Shown: positions 23,750 through 33,597 of the stretch, piece by piece
Numbering within the stretch: position 1 is the first letter of the stretch
Layout of the letters: the number at the start of each line of letters is the position of its first letter
NCBI GenBank assembly: GCA_027366585.1
Contig: DAHXNF010000040.1
Coordinates: 5,740-69,739, forward strand
DNA from: Thermoplasmatales archaeon
GTDB taxonomy: Archaea > Thermoplasmatota > Thermoplasmata > Thermoplasmatales > Thermoplasmataceae
Direction of reading: 5' to 3'
DNA length: 64,000 nucleotides
Notes under the pieces: generated by a model
Database searches by the model: none
What the model saw: only the letters and a program-made list of their open reading frames with translations
Told to the model about the DNA's origin: nothing
Translations under genes and position numbers: made by a program

Positions 23750-24354
23750 TCACAGCCTTCAACCACTCTTTTATTAGGCATACCTAAGATAATTATCCTC
23801 TCTATATCTTGATAACGTAGTAAGAGGAGCGACTAAAACGATCAATGCCATACGGGTTCTGTATTCTGGATTTCATACAGCGTTCTGTGCGGATATATTC
23901 CCTAAAAAGTTTGGGGTTGGGGGTCAAAGTATATTTTTTTGGCTTTAAAGAGAGATATTTACTAAATGCTATTCCACCGCCCTAAATACGGCAAATATGA
24001 TAATTATCGTGTTTTTTATCGTTCTTTTTCAGCTCATTATTGCAATAGGAATCCGCTGCCAACATGATAAGATTTTTAGATGCCTTACTAAGCTGAGAAG
24101 GGCTTTCTATTTTATGTATGTCGTCTTTGACACAATGCTGTGGACTTATCCTGCATTGAGAGAACTGAGACTTGACCCTCAGGCCTACAATTCCATTTAC
24201 TTTTTGGTCCATCATCTCCTCGAATGGGCTTAAACTGCTGCCGTTTCACTTCTCGTATGACCGGTAGGAAGTTGACTTCCCCGAAGGTCTCTTTTTGAAC
24301 GTGGAGGCAGGGGTCCAAAAACTGCCTCAAGTTGTGAAAATGAAGCTTGGGGAT

Positions 24355-25863
24355 TCATACCTCAGACCTTCTCCATATTACAGTTGCCAGAAGTATTGGG
24401 ATGAAGGCCCACAGAAACAGGAAGACAATCATGTCCTGCATGGAAAATGGAAGCAGGGTAAGCTCACCTCCTATCCCTATTCCTAATCCCCTGTCCAATC
24501 TTTGTAGTATTCCGGACACTATTTGGAAAGGAGTCAAGTACATGCCATAAGTTGAAACCTTGTAAGAGGTAACGATGTTTAGCGTTCGCAGAAAATAAAA
24601 CAGGCCAGCGATGAAAGATCCAAGGATATAATAGAAAAATAACAGGATTGCCAATGGTAAAGCAAAGATAGTGACAAGGCCTTTGCCAATGGCGGCAACA
24701 AGAAAAGTCAGCGATGAGAAAATTGCCCCTGTCAGCAGCGATACACCAAAGACCAAGAAAAATGTCCCGGCACTCAGGTATATTCCAAAGTAGTAGTAGA
24801 ACAGTAGATCTGACCCAACAAGCGCAGATACTATTGCCAGGCCTGTAAAGATAATGGTAGCCAAATATCTGGAAACTATTATGTCATTTCTTGAAAGCGG
24901 TTTTGCCAGAAGGAGTTCAATGGAATGTGTGGCCCGCGGATAGCCGAAAGAAAGAATTGCAACTATAATCCCAAAAAAGCTGACCAACAGTATGTCGGTG
25001 CTGAAAAACTCAGAGTAAACTTGCGGTTCCAAGTACTTTTGAGTTACCCTGACAAATACCTCATACTGGCCAGTGATAGGCTGAAAATTATTGACGTTTT
25101 TCCATCCAGAGCTCGTGTTGTATTGCAAGGTACCAAATGCGGTGCTTATGTTTGCAGGGATGGAATTGTAGTCAGGATACAAGCGTGTGTAGCTGAAATC
25201 CCCCGCACTTCCTAGATCAATAGTGCCACTAAATCCAGCGTTTAAGTTATTGCCGCCGCCAATGGAAGGGCTATACAAGCATACAACTCCTGAATCTTCG
25301 CTGGAATAAGATAACCTGAATTGTGTCTGAGGCGCCTTTGTGTCATTGGTACTAACATAAAAGACAACGAAACCTGCCCTGTTACTAAACCCATGGTCGT
25401 AGATGTCTAGGTAGCTGAGAAAACCGCCTGTCGAGTTTGATGGGCCTATTAGATATCCAACCGAGTACTGGTAACCTGTTGGCTCAGACAGGTACAACTC
25501 CGCATTCCATGTTTCATTGGAAGTGAAATTTATCACAGCCATCCCATCAGCGCCAATTGTTCCCAGTGCCGTTTTTGAGACCTGGGTCGTGGAATTGGTG
25601 AAAACCATCTTAACACCCTGTGAATATAATGGAGTCCCATTGTCTGTGTATGAAAAAACCACCAGATGATATGCACCGTCGCTGTAAAAGGAGTAGAATC
25701 CATTCTCATTTTCTAGATTTATAGTTGGTCCCTCAGACGATGTCTGGCCAAAAGTGAGGAGAACCAGAAGCAACTCCATCAGCAGGAAAACAGCGATAAG
25801 TCTTCTGGAGGACAGGGTTTTCCAGAGCGACTTCAGCAGGTTAGCTCTTCCCGATTTTCTCAA
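24355..25863 (-). CDS. ABC transporter permease with large N-terminal extracytoplasmic domain
   Basis: 502 aa. N-terminal TM, then an about 270-aa Ser/Thr/Asn-rich domain, then 5-6 TM segments. It overlaps the upstream ATPase gene by 23 nt. Confidence 0.7.
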   Translation of the reverse strand: MRKSGRANLLKSLWKTLSSRRLIAVFLLMELLLVLLTFGQTSSEGPTINLENENGFYSFYSDGAYHLVVFSYTDNGTPLYSQGVKMVFTNSTTQVSKTALGTIGADGMAVINFTSNETWNAELYLSEPTGYQYSVGYLIGPSNSTGGFLSYLDIYDHGFSNRAGFVVFYVSTNDTKAPQTQFRLSYSSEDSGVVCLYSPSIGGGNNLNAGFSGTIDLGSAGDFSYTRLYPDYNSIPANISTAFGTLQYNTSSGWKNVNNFQPITGQYEVFVRVTQKYLEPQVYSEFFSTDILLVSFFGIIVAILSFGYPRATHSIELLLAKPLSRNDIIVSRYLATIIFTGLAIVSALVGSDLLFYYYFGIYLSAGTFFLVFGVSLLTGAIFSSLTFLVAAIGKGLVTIFALPLAILLFFYYILGSFIAGLFYFLRTLNIVTSYKVSTYGMYLTPFQIVSGILQRLDRGLGIGIGGELTLLPFSMQDMIVFLFLWAFIPILLATVIWRRSEV

Positions 25864-26746
25864 AGAAATACCTCTCTATAGTGTCTTCCTTCCTCTCAAC
25901 GGACAGAACTTTTGACCCCGAATTTTCCAGGGCTTTACCAATCTCCCAGGAGCTTACAGGCTTCCTGCCGGAAAGGTGCAGTTCATATTTTTTTCCTGTG
26001 AGAATTACACTGCCAAATTCTTCCAGAGCGGCCCTTACCTTCGGCTCCTCTCCATCGCACCTTATTATGAACACGGAAAATTCCATTATTTCATCTACGC
26101 TGGCAACACTGACTATTCTACCATTGTGGATTATTGCAACCTTATCAGCCAACCCGTTGAGTTCAGTTAAAACATGCGTTGAAAGCAATATTGCTTTGCC
26201 CTTTGACTTAAGTTTGATCAAATTCTCCCTTAGGAACCTCGCCCCTTCAGGGTCAAGGCCGGTAAAAGTCTCATCCAAAAGATAATTTACAGGATCCTGG
26301 AAGAGAGATAGAGCTATCATCAGTCTCTTTTTCATCCCATTTGAAAAATGTCCTATCCTTTTCTTCAATAACCCGTCAAGGCCCACGACTTCCATGAGCT
26401 CCCGGGCCTGTTCTTTTATTTCGCCACGCGGCTTTCCAAAATAAGATCCATATTCCAAGAATAAGGAAATGGGATTCTGAAAAGGATCAAAAAGAGAAGC
26501 TTCCGGTATCCAGGCAATGTCAAATTTTGCTTTCTTCCCATCGGTAACGATACTCCTGTCCTCAACAAGCACATCTCCGGCAGTTGGAAATATTACGCCT
26601 GCCGTGATTTTCATTGTTGTGGTTTTTCCAGCTCCGTTGACGCCAGCGAAACCCATTATTTCTCCGTTGCAAATGCTCAGGCTAACAGAATCCAGAATGT
26701 TGCGTTTATCGTACACCTTGGTAACATCGACTATTTTAATAGTCAT
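25841..26746 (-). CDS. ABC transporter ATP-binding protein
   Basis: Walker A GVNGAGKTT, signature FSNGMKKRL, Walker B YLLDETFTGLD, H-loop LSTHVLTE. Confidence 0.9.
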   Translation of the reverse strand: MTIKIVDVTKVYDKRNILDSVSLSICNGEIMGFAGVNGAGKTTTMKITAGVIFPTAGDVLVEDRSIVTDGKKAKFDIAWIPEASLFDPFQNPISLFLEYGSYFGKPRGEIKEQARELMEVVGLDGLLKKRIGHFSNGMKKRLMIALSLFQDPVNYLLDETFTGLDPEGARFLRENLIKLKSKGKAILLSTHVLTELNGLADKVAIIHNGRIVSVASVDEIMEFSVFIIRCDGEEPKVRAALEEFGSVILTGKKYELHLSGRKPVSSWEIGKALENSGSKVLSVERKEDTIERYFFEKIGKS

Positions 26747-27338
26747 AATCTGAATAATTTAAATCAAAAGGCAGTATTTTAAATATATGCAACCCGCAGG
26801 AAAATTATCTTATCCTGAAATCATTAACAGATTATATGGATCCTGATTCCGCGAACAGGCTCCATAACCATTAGAATCGCTGGATCGTTATTCATCCAAT
26901 AGCAGTTGATTCAGTGAAAAGCATTGCTGTAACTTTCAGAGTGCCCGCTTCAGGACAAGACAGATCCTCTCCTGTTATTTCTGTTTCTCTTTATATTTTC
27001 ATAAGTCTCATCGTCTATCATGATAGGCTTTGTACATATCTGTATACAATTACCAATTTTACAGCCTATGGTCATAATGAAAAATACCCCATTCTGTGCA
27101 TCTCAACCTGGGCAGTCAAACCTAATAGATGATTTAGGACCCACAATCTACTGGTCGAATCGCGATCCGATTGATCTTTGTTGGTGGATAAGGTAAGAAA
27201 ATTAGGCCTATAGTTTTCGCTAGGGATATTTTGCAGTTCTGCTCATTGAATCATTCAGTTTTATGCAGATAGGATCTCTTACACATATGATAAGTTATAT
27301 GATGAAACGTAAAACACCTGTAACTATCCATGGAAAGT

Positions 27339-27920
27339 TCATACTTTGTGCTTTCCAACGACAGAACAAACTCTCTTACGAATTCCTGCCGGAACCTTGG
27401 AGAGGTATTTTTCCAATATTTCTGGTTCAGATATTCCAACCAGATCTCGATAAACACTGTCTGGAATTCTGAGCTTAAAATAAACAAGATCAATGAGCGT
27501 TTTCTCATTGTCTGAAACTGGTATGTAAAAATCACCGTATCTTATAAGTGAATACCCAAAAAACATGCTGCGATCCAACCTCCTTATAATGTAATTTCTT
27601 CCTTCAAAATCTCTGACTCCGGTTCTAACCACCCTTGGGGTAACCACAACTGGATTGGTTTGCTGATTCCATATTCCTCTGAGAGAGAGTGCATCCTCCA
27701 AGCCATAATAGAAAGGCCGATATGCAAAGCCAACGTATTGTACTTCATCATAAAATGTGTATGCTCCCTTTGTGATTCTCCTTATACGGCCGGATTCCAC
27801 CAGATTATGAAGCATGAGTTTATAATAGCCTTTTGAAGCACCACGGGATACCACGAAGTGCCTGGATTCGGCTGATGTGAAGGCTGGCTTGCTCGAAAAG
27901 TGCTGAGTGAACTCTTTCAT
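27339..27920 (-). CDS. AbiEi-like wHTH protein (type IV TA antitoxin/regulator family), copy 1
   Basis: 193 aa. KLMLHNLVESGRIRRITKGAYTF (the l..lv..G.l.ri.rG.Y motif) plus the C-terminal PFYYGLEDAL...IPVSDNEKTLIDL. It overlaps the upstream NTase gene by 4 nt. Confidence 0.65.
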   Translation of the reverse strand: MKEFTQHFSSKPAFTSAESRHFVVSRGASKGYYKLMLHNLVESGRIRRITKGAYTFYDEVQYVGFAYRPFYYGLEDALSLRGIWNQQTNPVVVTPRVVRTGVRDFEGRNYIIRRLDRSMFFGYSLIRYGDFYIPVSDNEKTLIDLVYFKLRIPDSVYRDLVGISEPEILEKYLSKVPAGIRKRVCSVVGKHKV

Positions 27921-28570
27921 GAACTTCGTCTCAGGAGCCTCCTTATCTCTTCCACCATTCTATTAAAAGATGGAGCCAGTCCAGCGTATACTATAGATCT
28001 CAGTACTGATTCATCCTCGGATGCCGGAATGTTCATCAATAATTTATCTAACTGACCGCGTACGGCTGACAGATCCAGTTCGCAGTGCAGGAGGTGATAG
28101 ATGTCAAACAAATCCCTGATATAGTGCCTGTCAGAGTATGCGGATATTTTCTCCAGAATCAGTTGTTCCGGGGTTAGAGAAAGTACGTCAATTTCAGTAC
28201 CGTCCATGAGTTCAAAACCTATCTGCACTCCCTTGACATGGACAGAATGGTTTACTTCAAGCTGTACTACCGTTCTGCCATCAGAAACAGAGGCGAAGAT
28301 AACGTTCCTCGTGTCCTTGAATTTGTCAAGAACAAGGCGGCGTTCTTTGATTTCTTTTTCAAAAGCGCTTTTTAACTCAGTAAATGAAATAGAATACCCA
28401 TCTATATCCTGTGAGAAGCGCTTCCCTCCATAGCATCGCCATATTGCAGTGCTTCCATGAAGCACGAAATCATCTGTAACTGAATATACGATCTCGATCA
28501 GTTCATCCTGCAAAATTGCAATATCCAGTTGAGTTCTCTTTTTCAACTGGTTTGATATTGGAATTTTCAT
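27917..28570 (-). CDS. AbiEii/DUF1814-like nucleotidyltransferase (type IV TA toxin family), copy 1
   Basis: 217 aa. NTase motif LHGSTAIWRCYGGKRFSQDIDGY and C-terminal KISAYSDRHYIRDLFDIYHLL. Confidence 0.7.
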   Translation of the reverse strand: MKIPISNQLKKRTQLDIAILQDELIEIVYSVTDDFVLHGSTAIWRCYGGKRFSQDIDGYSISFTELKSAFEKEIKERRLVLDKFKDTRNVIFASVSDGRTVVQLEVNHSVHVKGVQIGFELMDGTEIDVLSLTPEQLILEKISAYSDRHYIRDLFDIYHLLHCELDLSAVRGQLDKLLMNIPASEDESVLRSIVYAGLAPSFNRMVEEIRRLLRRSS

Positions 28571-28590
28571 TGTTATGAGATTAACCGTAG

Positions 28591-28606
28591 ATATATAAAA
28601 GTATAT
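28591..28606 (-). promoter_or_regulatory. TATA-like box for the minus-strand AbiE-like pair
   Basis: The minus strand reads tttatatat, centred about 25 nt upstream of ATG 28570. This fits a leaderless transcript. Confidence 0.3.
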
Positions 28607-28896
28607 CTTAGTTCAATTTTGGGAAAGGACTTTTGACACCTGTTATTTGTAATATTGGCGGTTTATGGCTGAATTGACGAGGCTAGAAACTTATTTGCTC
28701 GTTTCATCTTGACTATCGAAGCAGTTCATCATTAACCGATGATTCTCTCGATATATGACGCGCATCTTTTACTTTGAAAAAATATATTTTTTTGTTAAAT
28801 CGCACACAAATTCAGCAATAAGTTCATTTTATTGCATATGAGATCGTTTCCTTTCACGCTTCATCGACGATTTATGAAAACTTCAATCAGTGAAAG

Positions 28897-28908
28897 TTAT
28901 AATATAAT
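28897..28908 (+). promoter_or_regulatory. TATA-like box for the plus-strand AbiE-like pair
   Basis: ttataatataat, centred about 26 nt upstream of ATG 28928. Confidence 0.3.
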
Positions 28909-28927
28909 ATAACAATTACTCATTTAG

Positions 28928-29569
28928 ATGAAACCTATCGGATCATTTCTTAGCGGCCAAAGGCTTAAAATTGCTGAACTCCAAGATTATGTGATAGACC
29001 TCATCTACGATAGTTTCCAGCAAGGTGCTCTTCTATATGGCGGTACAGCGATCTGGAGATGTTTTGGAGGAATGCGATTTTCAGAAGATGTTGACATTTA
29101 CCTTGAAAAACATGCGTTTGACGACTTCATGATATCGCTTGAAGAGAATGGACTGAGAATGACTTGGAATGATCCGGAATTTCCTACAAGGGTTAGGATT
29201 GCCAGAAACGAAACAGACATCCTTCTGGAATCAAAACCAGGTTTTGCCGAAAACGAAATAAGAACTTATTCACGAGTTGATGGTAGCGTGAAAACAATCA
29301 ACGTACTTAGTACCACAGAACTGATGATAAGGAAGATAGAGGCGTATCAGGGCAGGAGGTTCATAAGAGATATTTACGATCTTTATGTCCTTACAAACTG
29401 GCTGGACAAGTCAGATTACCTGGTTAAGTCAAGATTGTCGCATTTCCTGCATGAATTAAAGGCGCCCGTTGATGAAAGTATACTGGGTTCATTACTTTAT
29501 GCAGGACCCAGGAATTTGAATTTCGCCCGTATGGTGGATTATCTCAGGAGGTGGATCAATGAAGTATGA
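28928..29569 (+). CDS. AbiEii/DUF1814-like nucleotidyltransferase, copy 2
   Basis: 213 aa. LYGGTAIWRCFGGMRFSEDVDIY and KIEAYQGRRFIRDIYDLYVL. Paralogous to 27917-28570. Confidence 0.7.
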   Translation: MKPIGSFLSGQRLKIAELQDYVIDLIYDSFQQGALLYGGTAIWRCFGGMRFSEDVDIYLEKHAFDDFMISLEENGLRMTWNDPEFPTRVRIARNETDILLESKPGFAENEIRTYSRVDGSVKTINVLSTTELMIRKIEAYQGRRFIRDIYDLYVLTNWLDKSDYLVKSRLSHFLHELKAPVDESILGSLLYAGPRNLNFARMVDYLRRWINEV

Positions 29570-30110
29570 AGCTTCCTTCATCGAATTCTTTTCGAAGCAG
29601 GCCATGTTTACCACAAACGATGCAAGAAGATTTCTCATTTGGCTAAGCGCAGGTGAATCTTACATACGACTGATGCTTCACAACCTAGTCAAATCCGGAA
29701 GACTGTACAGAATTGGGAAGGGTGCATACACATTTCACAGAAATGAAGCTGCAATTGGTTTCAGGTTCAGGCCTTTCTATTACGGACTTCAGTATGCACT
29801 TACCATAAGAAAGATCTGGACGCAGCAATCTGTTCCGGTCATCATAACTGCAAGTAAAGCCAATCCTGGTGTCAGGGAGATCATGGGGACCCGGATCATA
29901 GTGCACAGAATGAATGAAGGGACATTTTTTGGTTTTGAGTATGTTAGCTACGGTGGACTTTTCGTTCCCGTCTCAGACGTGGAAAAGACCCTGCTTGATT
30001 TCGATTATTATCATATAAGCCTGGACCGGGAAACTTTGGCAGCATTGAAGAAGAAAGCGAACAAAACAAAAGTTCTGGAATATGAAGCGAGGACAACCAG
30101 ATTTCAATAA
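29559..30110 (+). CDS. AbiEi-like wHTH protein, copy 2
   Basis: 183 aa. RLMLHNLVKSGRLYRIGKGAYTF and PFYYGLQYAL...VPVSDVEKTLLDF. It overlaps the NTase gene by 11 nt. Confidence 0.65.
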   Translation: MKYEASFIEFFSKQAMFTTNDARRFLIWLSAGESYIRLMLHNLVKSGRLYRIGKGAYTFHRNEAAIGFRFRPFYYGLQYALTIRKIWTQQSVPVIITASKANPGVREIMGTRIIVHRMNEGTFFGFEYVSYGGLFVPVSDVEKTLLDFDYYHISLDRETLAALKKKANKTKVLEYEARTTRFQ

Positions 30111-30341
30111 GGAATTATGTCTCGAATTGCGTGAGCAGGTCCACTGTCGGTCTGGAAGCTGAGGGATATTAAAATTCTGTGCATACGATCATCTAATTGA
30201 TGGCGCAAAGGAGGTACTGAAATGAAAAATACAGGATAACAGGTCAAAGAAGTAAGAAAATATCAAGAATCAATGGAGACAGGAGGTATCACTGTTATCT
30301 GTTCAACAGAGCACACTCTTGCTGCTGTGTTGAATAGATAT

Positions 30342-30656
30342 TTAAGCAGAATGTAGCTTCTTGATCTCATCTTCTTCAGGAATTACTTTCCACATCCTGC
30401 AGCTTGCATTATTCTTATCCAGGAAATCCATGATCTTATTCTTTCCATCCCCATATCTTATTGATGGAATCGAGTCAGGGAGACCAGCCCACCCGTAATG
30501 GTATTTGCCATACTTGCTTGATGAATTATATCCATACAGCAGCCTGTATATCCTGGCCTGTTCCTTTCTACTCATGCCCTTCCTTGTGTAGGGTACCCAC
30601 ACAAGCACGAGGATTGCGATCATTGCAGTACTATGCATATTCGTAGTACTGTTCAT
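30342..30656 (-). CDS. hypothetical small protein
   Basis: 104-aa ORF, possibly starting at the internal M at 30623. No family recognised. Lies in the accessory island. Confidence 0.35.
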   Translation of the reverse strand: MNSTTNMHSTAMIAILVLVWVPYTRKGMSRKEQARIYRLLYGYNSSSKYGKYHYGWAGLPDSIPSIRYGDGKNKIMDFLDKNNASCRMWKVIPEEDEIKKLHSA

Positions 30657-30664
30657 AGAGGAAA

Positions 30665-30847
30665 GTGATGGGGAAACCTTTCAAGGATAGAAGGAACTGG
30701 AAAGAATACAACGAGGAGCTGGTGATAAGAGGTACATTCTTCTTCAAGCTTGATTTTGTCAGGCAGTTGGCAAATATACTCTTTGTCAACTCAAAGAGAT
30801 ATATGGTTTTAAAGTTAGGAAGGTTGTGCAGATTATGGCACAGATGA
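30665..30847 (+). pseudogene. IS5-family (IS903-group-like) transposase N-terminal fragment
   Basis: GKPFKDRRNWKEYNEELVIRGTFFFKLDF matches the RNW..YN..L..RG....w.d N-terminus of IS903-like transposases. No DDE domain follows. Confidence 0.5.
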
Positions 30848-30975
30848 AAGTACTGCAACATTGACCAAATGCCAGAGCGCAAGCCCACACCCTTCAAGTT
30901 AGATCAAACTCGTTGTGGTTCAAAATGTTTCGACCAAGATATATATAAATATAACGATATTATTCTGAAAGTGTA

Positions 30976-31599
30976 ATGGGCTTGAAATACCTTTACTTGG
31001 ATGAGAGTGGAGACCTTGGCTTCTCGAGCGGGAGTTCAAAGTTTCTGGTAATTTCAGCTCTTATGGTTGCTGATTACAGAGAGCTAGATAGAATCATAAA
31101 GAATATGAGGAGAAATAAATTTAAAAAAGAACTGAGAAAAGCATCAGAGATAAAGGCTAACAAGTCCTCTCCCGAGTTGAAAAAATACATGATTAAAAAA
31201 TTAAACGAAGTCCCTGAAACATTAGGGTTTCATACTATTCTTAAAAAAGACCGGTTGCAAAGTCGATACTTAAGAGAGAATAAAGACAAGCTGTATAACT
31301 ATATTGCCGGGATTTTGGCCAGAAACATTGTCATAGATCGATTTGACGTAGAGATAAGAGTTGACAAGTCAAAGGGTAAACAAGTACTCCGGGATGATTT
31401 TAATGAATATTTTGTTAATCATCTGCGAGAGGGCTCTACAATAGGTAAAATTGAGATACATCACAGTGGATCTGAATCATTTTCAGGCCTCCAATTCGCA
31501 GACTTACTCGCCTGGAGTATCTACCAGAAATATTCTACGCATAATAATGAATACACTGATTTGTTTACCTTCGAGAATAGCTGTAACATTGTTACCTAA
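30976..31599 (+). CDS. DUF3800 family protein
   Basis: 207 aa. The N-terminal LYLDESGDLGF and the C-terminal SGLQFADLLAWSIY are the two DUF3800 hallmark motifs. Confidence 0.75.
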   Translation: MGLKYLYLDESGDLGFSSGSSKFLVISALMVADYRELDRIIKNMRRNKFKKELRKASEIKANKSSPELKKYMIKKLNEVPETLGFHTILKKDRLQSRYLRENKDKLYNYIAGILARNIVIDRFDVEIRVDKSKGKQVLRDDFNEYFVNHLREGSTIGKIEIHHSGSESFSGLQFADLLAWSIYQKYSTHNNEYTDLFTFENSCNIVT

Positions 31600-32661
31600 T
31601 ATACAGAGACCAAGTTAGATGATTTAAAAAAAATTCAGTACCAATGAGAACTCTTTATCGTGCACCTCAAGGTACACTGTCTCATTGGTTTTACCTGTAC
31701 ACTATAATCAATATAATCTATTTAAGCGTTGTTAATGTAATGGGTGTGAGACACTATTCTAAGACATTCCCATATTGAATAGATTGTGACACACGTTGGT
31801 GTAGAACAGAACATTATCGATCCTTTCATCCCTCTTCTGTGTTATGTTCCATCCGAGCATTTTCTTGTCAGCTGCAAATCCAAATTCTGAACTGCTTATC
31901 TCATGGCACTATTTCAGGTATCCCATGGTATCCTCAACAGACTCCTTGGTTGATTTCCACTCCTGTGAACCATTGAGAGTGGCATTCTTTTTCGGGGTGA
32001 CAATAACCTTGTATTGTCAGGTTTATCTATGTATGATGTGGATGAATAATACCTGCCAAGACGGATAGAAACCATGGTTATTTCAATGGAACTTCAACGT
32101 TCTATTAACTATCCCTCTATATGCACCTTTCTCCACGATCAAACTGCCTTGTTTTTTTCCGGGTCCAGTACGACAATTTATGCACCGCTGTTTCAGGATC
32201 AAAACATTGGATCAGGCGGATCCTCAAATGGGTCAACGCCATCAGTTTTCAAGCAACACTCAGCAGGAACATCGACATAACGAGTGGAAAATCGATAAAC
32301 TTTCCGATCGACCTGGGGTAGTATGGTTGCTTGGTGCCATAACCCATTGCGCTTATTCAAACTTCATTCTGCATGTTTCTTTATGGAATCTTATGGAATA
32401 CACCACAATATAATGACTTTGCAGAACGAGAAGTTCTATTCTGTTGAGTTCACCGCTTTTGCGGATTCCCCGCATGTTGCGATGCATGGCGGAGTCCGGC
32501 GCTTGAATATAGAAAATGTGACATTAACTGGTCAAATCCATGCGTTGGTGCTGACCAGGCCGCCATGATGTATTCATTCCACATCCTGGAGAGGTAAGGT
32601 TTTACGACTATCCGATACAATCAGGGAAGGAAATATCAGCAAATATCCCTTAGGAAAAAGA

Positions 32662-33597
32662 CTACAGAGAAAGCTTCCCGGGAATCTTTGGGAACGGATG
32701 GGTATCCTCTATTCTCTGGAGACCGCAAATGTACCTTGTCAACCTCTCGATCCCAATGCCGAACCCCGCACTCGGGGCAAGGCCCTTGGAGGAATAGGCA
32801 AGTATCCACTTGAACTGCTCCTCCGATTGTCCCTTCCTCTTAATCCTCTCCCTGATTCGTTCTTCAAGGAACTCCCTTTCTCCTCCCGAGAGTCCCTCGC
32901 CAAAACCTTCCGGGTAAATCAGGTCCATGTCCTCAAGTATTCCAGGCTCACTGTCACTTTCCCTGTCATAGAATTCCCTGTTCTCCAGGGGAATGTCTAT
33001 AATCCAGAACGGGTCCTTCATCCTGCCCGAAAGGATCGATTCAAAGTCCTTGCCGTATTCCTTCTCCGCGTCAAGGAACCTGAACTTCTTGAACGGTCTG
33101 GACGGAACATTGAGTTTTCTCCTAAGGAATTTGAGATCCGATGCCCTTTCACTGTTCATATGCTGTGTCAGCCCGACCATGAGATCCTCTACAAGCCCCA
33201 TCATCTCTTCCCTTGAGGCTCCACGCTTTTCAACATCAATCTGCGTGAATTCGGAAAGATGGCGGCCGGTTTTCTCCTTTTCCGGCGTTTCCAGGCGAAT
33301 GTTCGGTGAAAAGGTGAAGATTGAACCAAGCTCCTTCGCAAGGATCTGCTTGTGGAATATCATGCTCTTGGTCAGTCCATATTTCATTCCATAATAGTCG
33401 ATCGATGGATCCAGTACGGGGTGGTTAAGCGGGTCAGTGATCGGAGATATTATGACCGGGGGCACCTCTATGAATCCATGTTTCCTGAAAAATTCGCCAA
33501 GGTATGCCCTTATGTCGCTCTGGACCTCGATCGCTTTCTGCACTCTCTTGTCTTCAAGGTGCTGCTGAAGGCTGTCAACCAGTAAGTTATCGTTCAT
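32662..33597 (-). CDS. class II aaRS-like catalytic core without anticodon-binding domain (archaeal AsnRS-like asparagine synthetase A type)
   Basis: 311 aa. Motif 1-like GFIEVPPVIISP, motif 2-like TGRHLSEFTQIDVE, motif 3-like GFGIGIERLTRYICG. There is no N-terminal OB fold. Confidence 0.75.
   Translation of the reverse strand: MNDNLLVDSLQQHLEDKRVQKAIEVQSDIRAYLGEFFRKHGFIEVPPVIISPITDPLNHPVLDPSIDYYGMKYGLTKSMIFHKQILAKELGSIFTFSPNIRLETPEKEKTGRHLSEFTQIDVEKRGASREEMMGLVEDLMVGLTQHMNSERASDLKFLRRKLNVPSRPFKKFRFLDAEKEYGKDFESILSGRMKDPFWIIDIPLENREFYDRESDSEPGILEDMDLIYPEGFGEGLSGGEREFLEERIRERIKRKGQSEEQFKWILAYSSKGLAPSAGFGIGIERLTRYICGLQRIEDTHPFPKIPGKLSL

Follow-up and report, generated by a model that had tools for sequence, protein, structure and literature searches.

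Two AbiE-type nucleotidyltransferase–regulator gene pairs arranged head-to-head in a Thermoplasmatales archaeon

The stretch of DNA analyzed here (the window; 64,000 nucleotides of an acid-mine Thermoplasmatales archaeon, GenBank assembly GCA_027366585.1, contig DAHXNF010000040.1, positions 5,740 to 69,739 of the forward strand) carries at its positions 27339–30110 two divergently oriented gene pairs, each with a nucleotidyltransferase (NTase) gene first and a gene for a winged helix-turn-helix (wHTH) protein second. The pairs are probably two independent, intact cassettes of the AbiE family of toxin–antitoxin (TA) and abortive-infection systems, which belong to an archaeal toxin-first subfamily and lie head-to-head in a horizontally acquired island of 9 kb. 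Each cassette would be a self-contained unit of ~1.25 kb, comprising a TATA-centered palindromic operator of 36–40 bp, a probably leaderless NTase cistron, and an overlapping AbiEi cistron led by a Shine-Dalgarno (SD) sequence.

The four genes and their families

The first pair is located on the minus strand. NT1 (28570 to 27917) encodes a compact AbiEii/MenT-type (DUF1814) NTase of 217 residues, the presumed toxin of module 1 (Thermoplasmatota lineage, hereafter type 1), and its stop codon overlaps by 4 nt (ATGA) the ATG of HT1 (27920 to 27339), which encodes the AbiEi-type partner of 193 residues, with an N-terminal wHTH and an AbiEi C-terminal domain, the presumed antitoxin and autorepressor of that module. 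The second pair is located on the plus strand, where NT2 (28928–29569), a compact AbiEii/MenT-type NTase of 213 residues and the presumed toxin of module 2 (type 2 lineage), overlaps by 11 nt the gene of its AbiEi-type partner HT2 (29559–30110; 183 residues), again a presumed antitoxin and autorepressor. An SD-like GGAGGTG (29548–29554, plus strand) lies within the 3' end of NT2, 4 nt 5' of the HT2 ATG. All four open reading frames (ORFs) are intact in the ORF list for 25–33 kb, and the spacer between NT1 and NT2 (28571–28927, 357 bp) has a GC content of 31%, compared with 47% for the window. A first-pass annotation of this DNA, made from the letters alone, had given the four-gene layout, coordinates, strands, overlaps, and spacer length exactly to the base, had called the spacer AT-rich, and had quoted peptide motifs, all of which are found in the translations; its by-eye identities (about 35–40% for the NTases and 45% for the wHTH proteins) agree with those of BLASTP, 35% between NT1 and NT2 (E 2e-28) and 45% between HT1 and HT2 (E 2e-50).

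The junction between the two pairs recurs in metagenomic data. A 14.8-kb contig of a source-like run spans 25500–31695 with zero differences, and a mine-drainage metagenome run matches the window exactly. In addition, a 752-nt contig from a hot-spring metagenome of another, independent study covers 28342–29093, with the NT1 5' end, the entire spacer, and the NT2 5' end, at 13 differences (~98% identity). No indels inside the four genes are reported for these metagenome matches. An assembly chimera at the head-to-head junction is ruled out by the difference-free 14.8-kb contig and the independent hot-spring contig.

The four proteins belong to known families; public records already carry the AbiEii-family label, and defense-finder models recognize them. 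In Pfam, NT1 (56 bits) and NT2 (45.5 bits) match PF08843 (AbiEii/DUF1814) well above its gathering score of 22.5, and HT2 matches AbiEi_4 (29.1 bits) above the gathering score of 25, of which HT1 falls slightly short. Many AbiEii models of PADLOC match the NTases (E 1e-17 for NT1 and 5.6e-14 for NT2), and several of its AbiEi models match the partners over nearly their full length (E 6e-12 for HT1, and 1.3e-16 over residues 5–178 for HT2). A profile built from 25 NTases of the clade and searched against the PDB matches the DUF1814 structures JHP933, MenT4, and Streptococcus agalactiae AbiGII/AbiEii. The AlphaFold2 model of NT1 has a predicted local distance difference test (pLDDT) score of 96 and is matched by Foldseek to JHP933 (4ok0 and 4o8s), MenT4 (6y56), and MenT3/TglT (6j7o), whereas that of HT1 (pLDDT 96.6) has as its best PDB fold S. 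agalactiae AbiEi (6y8q; E 5e-7 over ~205 columns, full length) and as its next best Rv2827c (1zel). The first-pass assignment of the NTases to the AbiEii type and of the partners to AbiEi-type wHTH proteins is thus upheld by Pfam (with HT1 below the gathering score), PADLOC, the PDB profile search, and AlphaFold with Foldseek. In sum, sequence profiles and predicted folds identify both pairs as an AbiEii-type NTase with an AbiEi-type wHTH partner.

The residues of the pol-beta motifs I (hG[GS]), II (DxD), and III (acidic) and of the DUF1814 motif IV (K..A...R...RD..D...L), as defined by Dy et al. 2014 (PMC3985639), can be assigned in both NTases. In NT1 they are G39-S40 (motif I), D55xD57 (motif II), the acidic E of LEVN (motif III), and K141, A144, R148, R152-D153, D156, and L160 (motif IV). 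NT2 carries the same residues, most of which are invariant in the 25-sequence clade alignment, and both proteins retain intact catalytic residues in motifs I, II, and IV. The first-pass annotation had described an hGG/S-x9-13-D-x-D arrangement; the motifs are present, but G39-S40 is separated from D55 by 14 residues rather than by 9–13. Two residues ahead of DxD, Ser53 (in RFS-x-D-x-D) is invariant in the clade alignment, in which D55 and D57 are kept in at least 90% of sequences. The positions equivalent to Ser53 are phosphoacceptors in AbiEii (T65) and MenT3 (S78) (preprint 10.64898/2026.01.19.700257). We note that residues 41–53 of NT1 conform to a motif, T-A-I-W-R-C-(Y/F)-G-G-x-R-F-S, in which W44, R45, and C46 are invariant in the clade alignment; this motif is peculiar to the toxin-first clade, and a canonical DUF1814 protein such as JHP933 has ETALYLGYGLNRFS instead.

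Toxin-first order and predicted TATA-centered operators

Neither pair follows the canonical regulator-first order of AbiE, the NTase gene being first in both. A pattern scan for relatives of the compact NTase, with each GTDB species represented by one genome, gives 411 stretches. Among the best 80 of these 411, an AbiEi-like gene lies directly 3' of the NTase gene and on the same strand at 78 loci, and the other two loci end at a contig edge after the NTase. A large archaeal clade of ~215-residue NTases has toxin-first order as its fixed arrangement; its hosts at the best 80 loci are Thermoplasmatota, Micrarchaeota, Iainarchaeota/Diapherotrites, Nanoarchaeota, Woesearchaeota, Parvarchaeota, and one Thaumarchaeota bin. 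The proposal of an order-inverted, shortened subfamily (about 215 residues) therefore stands as regards the leading, compact NTase, but the inverted order is not peculiar to this locus; the survey of gene order finds NTase-first to be common in the archaeal clade, an outcome that the first-pass annotation had itself named as a refutation.

The commonest junction between NTase and partner is a 4-nt overlap (47 of 76 loci). An SD-like 4-mer precedes the start of the partner at 53 of 76 loci and that of the NTase at 5 of 76, a contrast confounded by base composition, the former site lying in coding sequence and the latter in an AT-rich promoter. In the NTase tree the toxin-first sequences are split from two canonical ones of the same genome with a support of 98, just these two serving as outgroup, on very long branches. 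These two belong to canonical-order pairs on another contig, C44 (L001:1408-2834 and L002:1420-2747), in each of which a putative AbiEi (209 and 196 residues, with no or weak Pfam match) comes first and an AbiEii (266 and 245 residues) second, with overlaps of 4 and 1 nt. In all, four AbiE-type modules are present in this genome, and both architectures are represented. We found no description of a toxin-first AbiE design in the literature, a weak negative since the search reached few subscription journals.

Some members of the clade are in decay. An NT1-type gene is interrupted at L017:1716-2330 beside an intact partner gene, and in-frame stops (TAA and TAG) occur in two NT2-type genes (G052:C1:285682-286320 and G006:C25:5742-6350).

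Each of the two present modules has a predicted promoter/operator of its own. That of NT1 (28580–28617; inverted repeat I4) is an imperfect 38-bp palindrome (ATTAACCGTAGATATA / TATATCTTAGTTCAAT) with a central TATA box, centered ~28.5 nt 5' of the NT1 ATG. This type-1 palindrome, with the consensus TTAACC-AAAC/AAAG-(A/T)TATA-n5-7-TATA(A/T)-GTTT/CTTT-GGTTAA, is the sole conserved upstream sequence in an alignment of 79 loci that range from Thermoplasmatota to DPANN. Over its 16 position pairs, 81.7% of the cells of the alignment are complementary, compared with 33–40% in the slid controls. Both sides have changed in 13 of the 16 pairs, and 0 of 500 shuffles reach the observed values. Columns 60/77, for example, are G:C at 28 loci and C:G at 25. 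Such compensatory changes indicate that the palindromic symmetry is maintained.

The predicted promoter/operator of NT2 (28885–28924; AATCAGTGAAAGTTATAATATAATATAACAATTACTCATT; inverted repeat I1) has an 18-bp core, GTTATAATATAATATAAC (28896–28913), which is palindromic at 16 of 18 positions and centered 23.5 nt 5' of the NT2 ATG. Its conserved block, AAT(C/A)AGTGAAAGTTATAATATAATATAACAATTACTTATT, is nearly invariant over ~40 nt in nine orthologous loci, whose proteins are merely 54–77% identical and whose DNA farther upstream is unrelated. The core is found at a single site in the 1.7-Mb genome, which gives no sign of a wider regulon. The type-1 palindrome has at its middle a TTTTATATA-type box, ~24–29 nt from the start codon, and overall the palindrome centers lie 23–29 nt from the ATG; the two palindromes of the window are 306 bp apart (center to center) and differ in their outer arms. 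The TATA-like boxes that the first-pass annotation had noticed near each NTase ATG are thus real, conserved, and central in the palindromes. The natural reading of this arrangement is a TATA box embedded in a predicted dimer-type operator and followed by what would be a leaderless transcript.

Between the two operators, the central spacer (28618–28884, 266 bp) is AT-rich, has no recognizable conserved element, and finds no match upstream of the aligned orthologues. Scans of the window with Rfam models and for tRNA genes give no matches; the spacer thus contains no RNA gene, and the window lacks a tRNA integration site. A scan for bacterial sigma-70 promoters and terminators is uninformative since the host is an archaeon.

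We also note variation within the type-1 operator. The inner half-site alternates among GATATA, CATATA, CTTATA, and GTTATA, and the other arm changes to match (alignment A4, columns 60/77 and 61/76). The switches roughly follow the host clade, and so does the start of the partner recognition helix (GYHK/GYYK versus GYLN/GYLS; alignment A5, residues 31–36). This covariation of half-site and helix may represent a protein–DNA specificity code, or only shared ancestry.

Likely independence, origin, and action of the two modules

Judged from its homologues in AbiE and MenAT, the NTase in its free form would add nucleotides to tRNA 3' ends and so arrest translation, an activity shown for MenT toxins and for AbiEii (preprint 10.64898/2026.01.19.700257). 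The C-terminal domain of the partner would bind the NTase and neutralize it, probably by induced autophosphorylation of Ser53, and its wHTH domain would bind the palindrome, block access of TBP and TFB, and autorepress the operon, again by analogy with these homologues. The toxin-first layout could be made safe by translational coupling and by the SD sequence ahead of the antitoxin cistron. The two cassettes would most likely act as parallel, insulated systems and not as one jointly controlled unit.

Several results weigh against this reading of two independent TA cassettes. For the partner proteins, the AbiEi_4 score of HT1 is 23.6 bits (E 5.5e-5), slightly below the gathering score of 25; none of the four proteins has a significant match in NCBIfam, where TAA_AbiEi reaches only E 0.049; and a profile of the partners finds nothing relevant in the PDB by sequence, so that their assignment rests on the PADLOC models and the predicted fold. 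For expression and its control, none of the RNA runs searched for the locus holds it, the SD contrast is confounded as described above, and the symmetry of the palindromes could in principle serve recombination or a hairpin instead. For the insulation of the modules, HT1 and HT2 have very similar recognition helices (YYKLMLHNLVES versus YIRLMLHNLVKS) and the operators share a (G/A)(T/A)TATA...TATA(A/T)(C/T) core, so that cross-binding of HT1 and HT2 is possible.

This last similarity bears on the suggestion of the first-pass annotation, that one bidirectional control region may be shared by two specificities. On such a view the locus would be one functional unit, with both wHTH proteins acting on the common spacer and the modules cross-regulating. 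Besides the likeness of operator cores and recognition helices, the divergent genes are separated by just 357 bp, the head-to-head junction is retained in a second sample, and AbiE modules adjoin other AbiE modules elsewhere: canonical-order pairs lie head-to-head with toxin-first pairs in a member of the Thermoplasmata (L008:988-3645) and in a micrarchaeote (L074:952-3243), and in tandem with one in a member of the Micrarchaeia (L041:3001-5529). These three arrangements indicate that AbiE modules of different architecture repeatedly cluster. A head-to-head pairing of two toxin-first modules, however, is seen at the present locus only, and at none of the 78 toxin-first and 11 NT2-type loci compared. 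Each module has its own conserved palindrome, placed close to its own gene and 306 bp from the other, the central spacer between them has no element conserved among the aligned orthologues, and orthologous modules stand alone elsewhere, where the palindrome is kept and the DNA upstream of it is unrelated. We consider a shared control region unlikely. Two specificities are plausible as judged from the operators, whose outer arms differ, and from the differing protein pairs.

The preferred reading of two separate cassettes agrees with the NTase phylogeny. NT1 has relatives of 55–62% identity in other Thermoplasmata, and it falls in a clade of 17 entries, of which 15 are from Thermoplasmatota, with a Shimodaira–Hasegawa-like approximate likelihood ratio test (SH-aLRT) support of 97. 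NT2 belongs to another clade, whose eight sequences all come from the same order and which has a long stem and a support of 100. NT2-type genes (54–77% identity) are present in 11 of 60 related genomes searched, and all 11 fetched loci are NTase-first with a co-diverged partner; within their 1.5-kb flanks, where flanks exist, none has an NT1-type pair. The identity of HT2 to the partner encoded beside the NT2 orthologue of genome G007 is 76%, and to HT1 only 45%, which indicates that toxin and partner have co-diverged. At least four other genomes (G020, G029, G052, and G055) also carry both the NT1 type and the NT2 type, at unlinked sites.

The island supplies a further line of evidence. Three same-genus genomes are collinear with the window over 19.3–23.7 kb and resume at the homologue of position 32662 after ~160 bp, so that ~23.75–32.66 kb is a strain-specific accessory island (23750–32661, ~9 kb), which has a GC content of 41% compared with 49–51% in the flanks. 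Its lack in the three genomes implies that the adjacency of the two modules is young and their divergence old.

A true "divergent tandem", in which one module was duplicated in place and the copies then diverged for a long time, is very unlikely on these data. The two pairs are adjacent and of the same architecture, and their identities of 35% and 45%, together with their common membership in the toxin-first clade, bear out the first-pass view that the copies are old paralogues. NT1, however, groups with Thermoplasmatota sequences and NT2 with a different, long-stem clade, both well supported, and the orthologues of each (57–62% for NT1, 77% for NT2) are far closer to it than NT1 is to NT2. 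In-situ duplication is rejected on the NTase tree and on the NT2-type modules that stand alone in 11 related genomes, same-genus genomes among them; the whole island, moreover, is missing from the three same-genus genomes. The different lineages, operator arms, and co-diverged partners suggest instead that separate acquisition and parallel action of the modules are most likely, and their adjacency is most simply explained by accretion in the island.

It is highly improbable that the locus has nothing to do with TA or defense, either because each pair is a regulator with a non-toxic NTase of cellular role or because one pair is already inactive. The decayed members of the clade (L017, and the genes with stops in G006 and G052) could be taken in that sense, although occasional pseudogenization is typical of TA and defense genes. 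All catalytic and clade-invariant residues are intact in both NT1 and NT2, the distribution is patchy and island-borne, and tight coupling to a partner of the AbiEi fold, together with an operator of the autoregulation type such as is predicted here, is a hallmark of TA systems.

Comparison with described systems and genomic surroundings

The closest described relative is AbiE, of Lactococcus lactis plasmid pNP40 and of S. agalactiae, in each of which the regulator gene lies ahead of the NTase gene (Dy et al. 2014, PMC3985639), and which has been reclassified as type VII (preprint 10.64898/2026.01.19.700257). Common to AbiE and the present pairs are an NTase (the toxin, presumed here) of the DUF1814/PF08843 family with motifs I–IV and a Ser/Thr two residues ahead of DxD, a partner of the two-domain AbiEi fold (wHTH and C-terminal domain; best fold match 6y8q), and an overlapping bicistronic layout with inverted repeats at the promoter, the latter predicted in the present pairs. 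The present pairs differ from AbiE in their reversed gene order, in an NTase of ~215 rather than ~290 residues, in having, in place of two inverted repeats at a sigma-70 promoter, one long palindrome centered on an archaeal TATA box, in a first cistron that is probably leaderless, and in an identity of less than 20% to the solved proteins.

Like the MenAT systems of Mycobacterium tuberculosis (MenA3/MenT3, Rv1044/Rv1045; MenA4/MenT4, Rv2827c/Rv2826c), the present pairs have an NTase of the fold seen in 6y56 and 6j7o, a partner of the fold of 1zel, and a conserved serine equivalent to the phosphoacceptor. MenAT is, however, antitoxin-first, bacterial, and made of larger proteins, and for MenT the tRNA targets and the nucleotide specificity are known. 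Helicobacter pylori JHP933 (4o8s/4ok0) is the best match in both profile and fold (E 9e-10; template modeling score 0.67), a similarly compact DUF1814 NTase with the RFSEDLDF motif in common, but it is bacterial and lacks the TAIWRCYGG motif of the present clade, and we know of no AbiEi-type partner downstream of it. Toxin-first order has precedents in the type II TA operons higBA, hicAB, and mqsRA, where the toxin gene comes first and the antitoxin is a DNA-binding autorepressor; these provide an analogy only, a precedent for a viable reversed order, since their protein families and toxic activities are unrelated to those of the present pairs. The departures from described AbiE and MenAT systems are thus of architecture, namely the reversed order, the compact NTase, the predicted single TATA-centered operator, and the probably leaderless first cistron.

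AbiE is among the commonest defense and TA systems detected in archaea, and to our knowledge all experimental studies of it concern bacterial, antitoxin-first examples. The present clade has hundreds of members in Thermoplasmatota and DPANN and would show how archaeal transcription and translation can accommodate an autoregulated TA module of bacterial style. For annotation, toxin-first order in compact AbiE pairs is normal and warrants no anomaly flag. The locus itself is a tidy and fairly ordinary example of the clade; what sets it apart is that two lineages with distinct operators are neighbors, and two diverged versions side by side are convenient for a comparison of operator and toxin specificity. 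A more speculative extension, which we regard as doubtful, is that the archaeal toxin-first clade embodies a regulatory design distinct from that of bacterial AbiE, with a leaderless toxin, an SD-led overlapping antitoxin, and a dimer-type operator built on the TATA box. If so, nearly the same recognition helix facing different outer arms 306 bp apart would make the locus a natural experiment within the clade: strictly orthogonal modules would define a small code that governs which operator and which toxin are recognized, and modules that are not would form a cross-wired two-toxin circuit.

The remainder of the island is occupied by an ABC transporter, an orphan ORF, a DUF3800 gene, and 1 kb free of ORFs. 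Close orthologues of the ABC-2 permease/ATPase pair are lacking in the genus (best 39%), and the DUF3800 gene (30976–31599; Pfam E 1e-17), 0.9 kb downstream of HT2, is intact.

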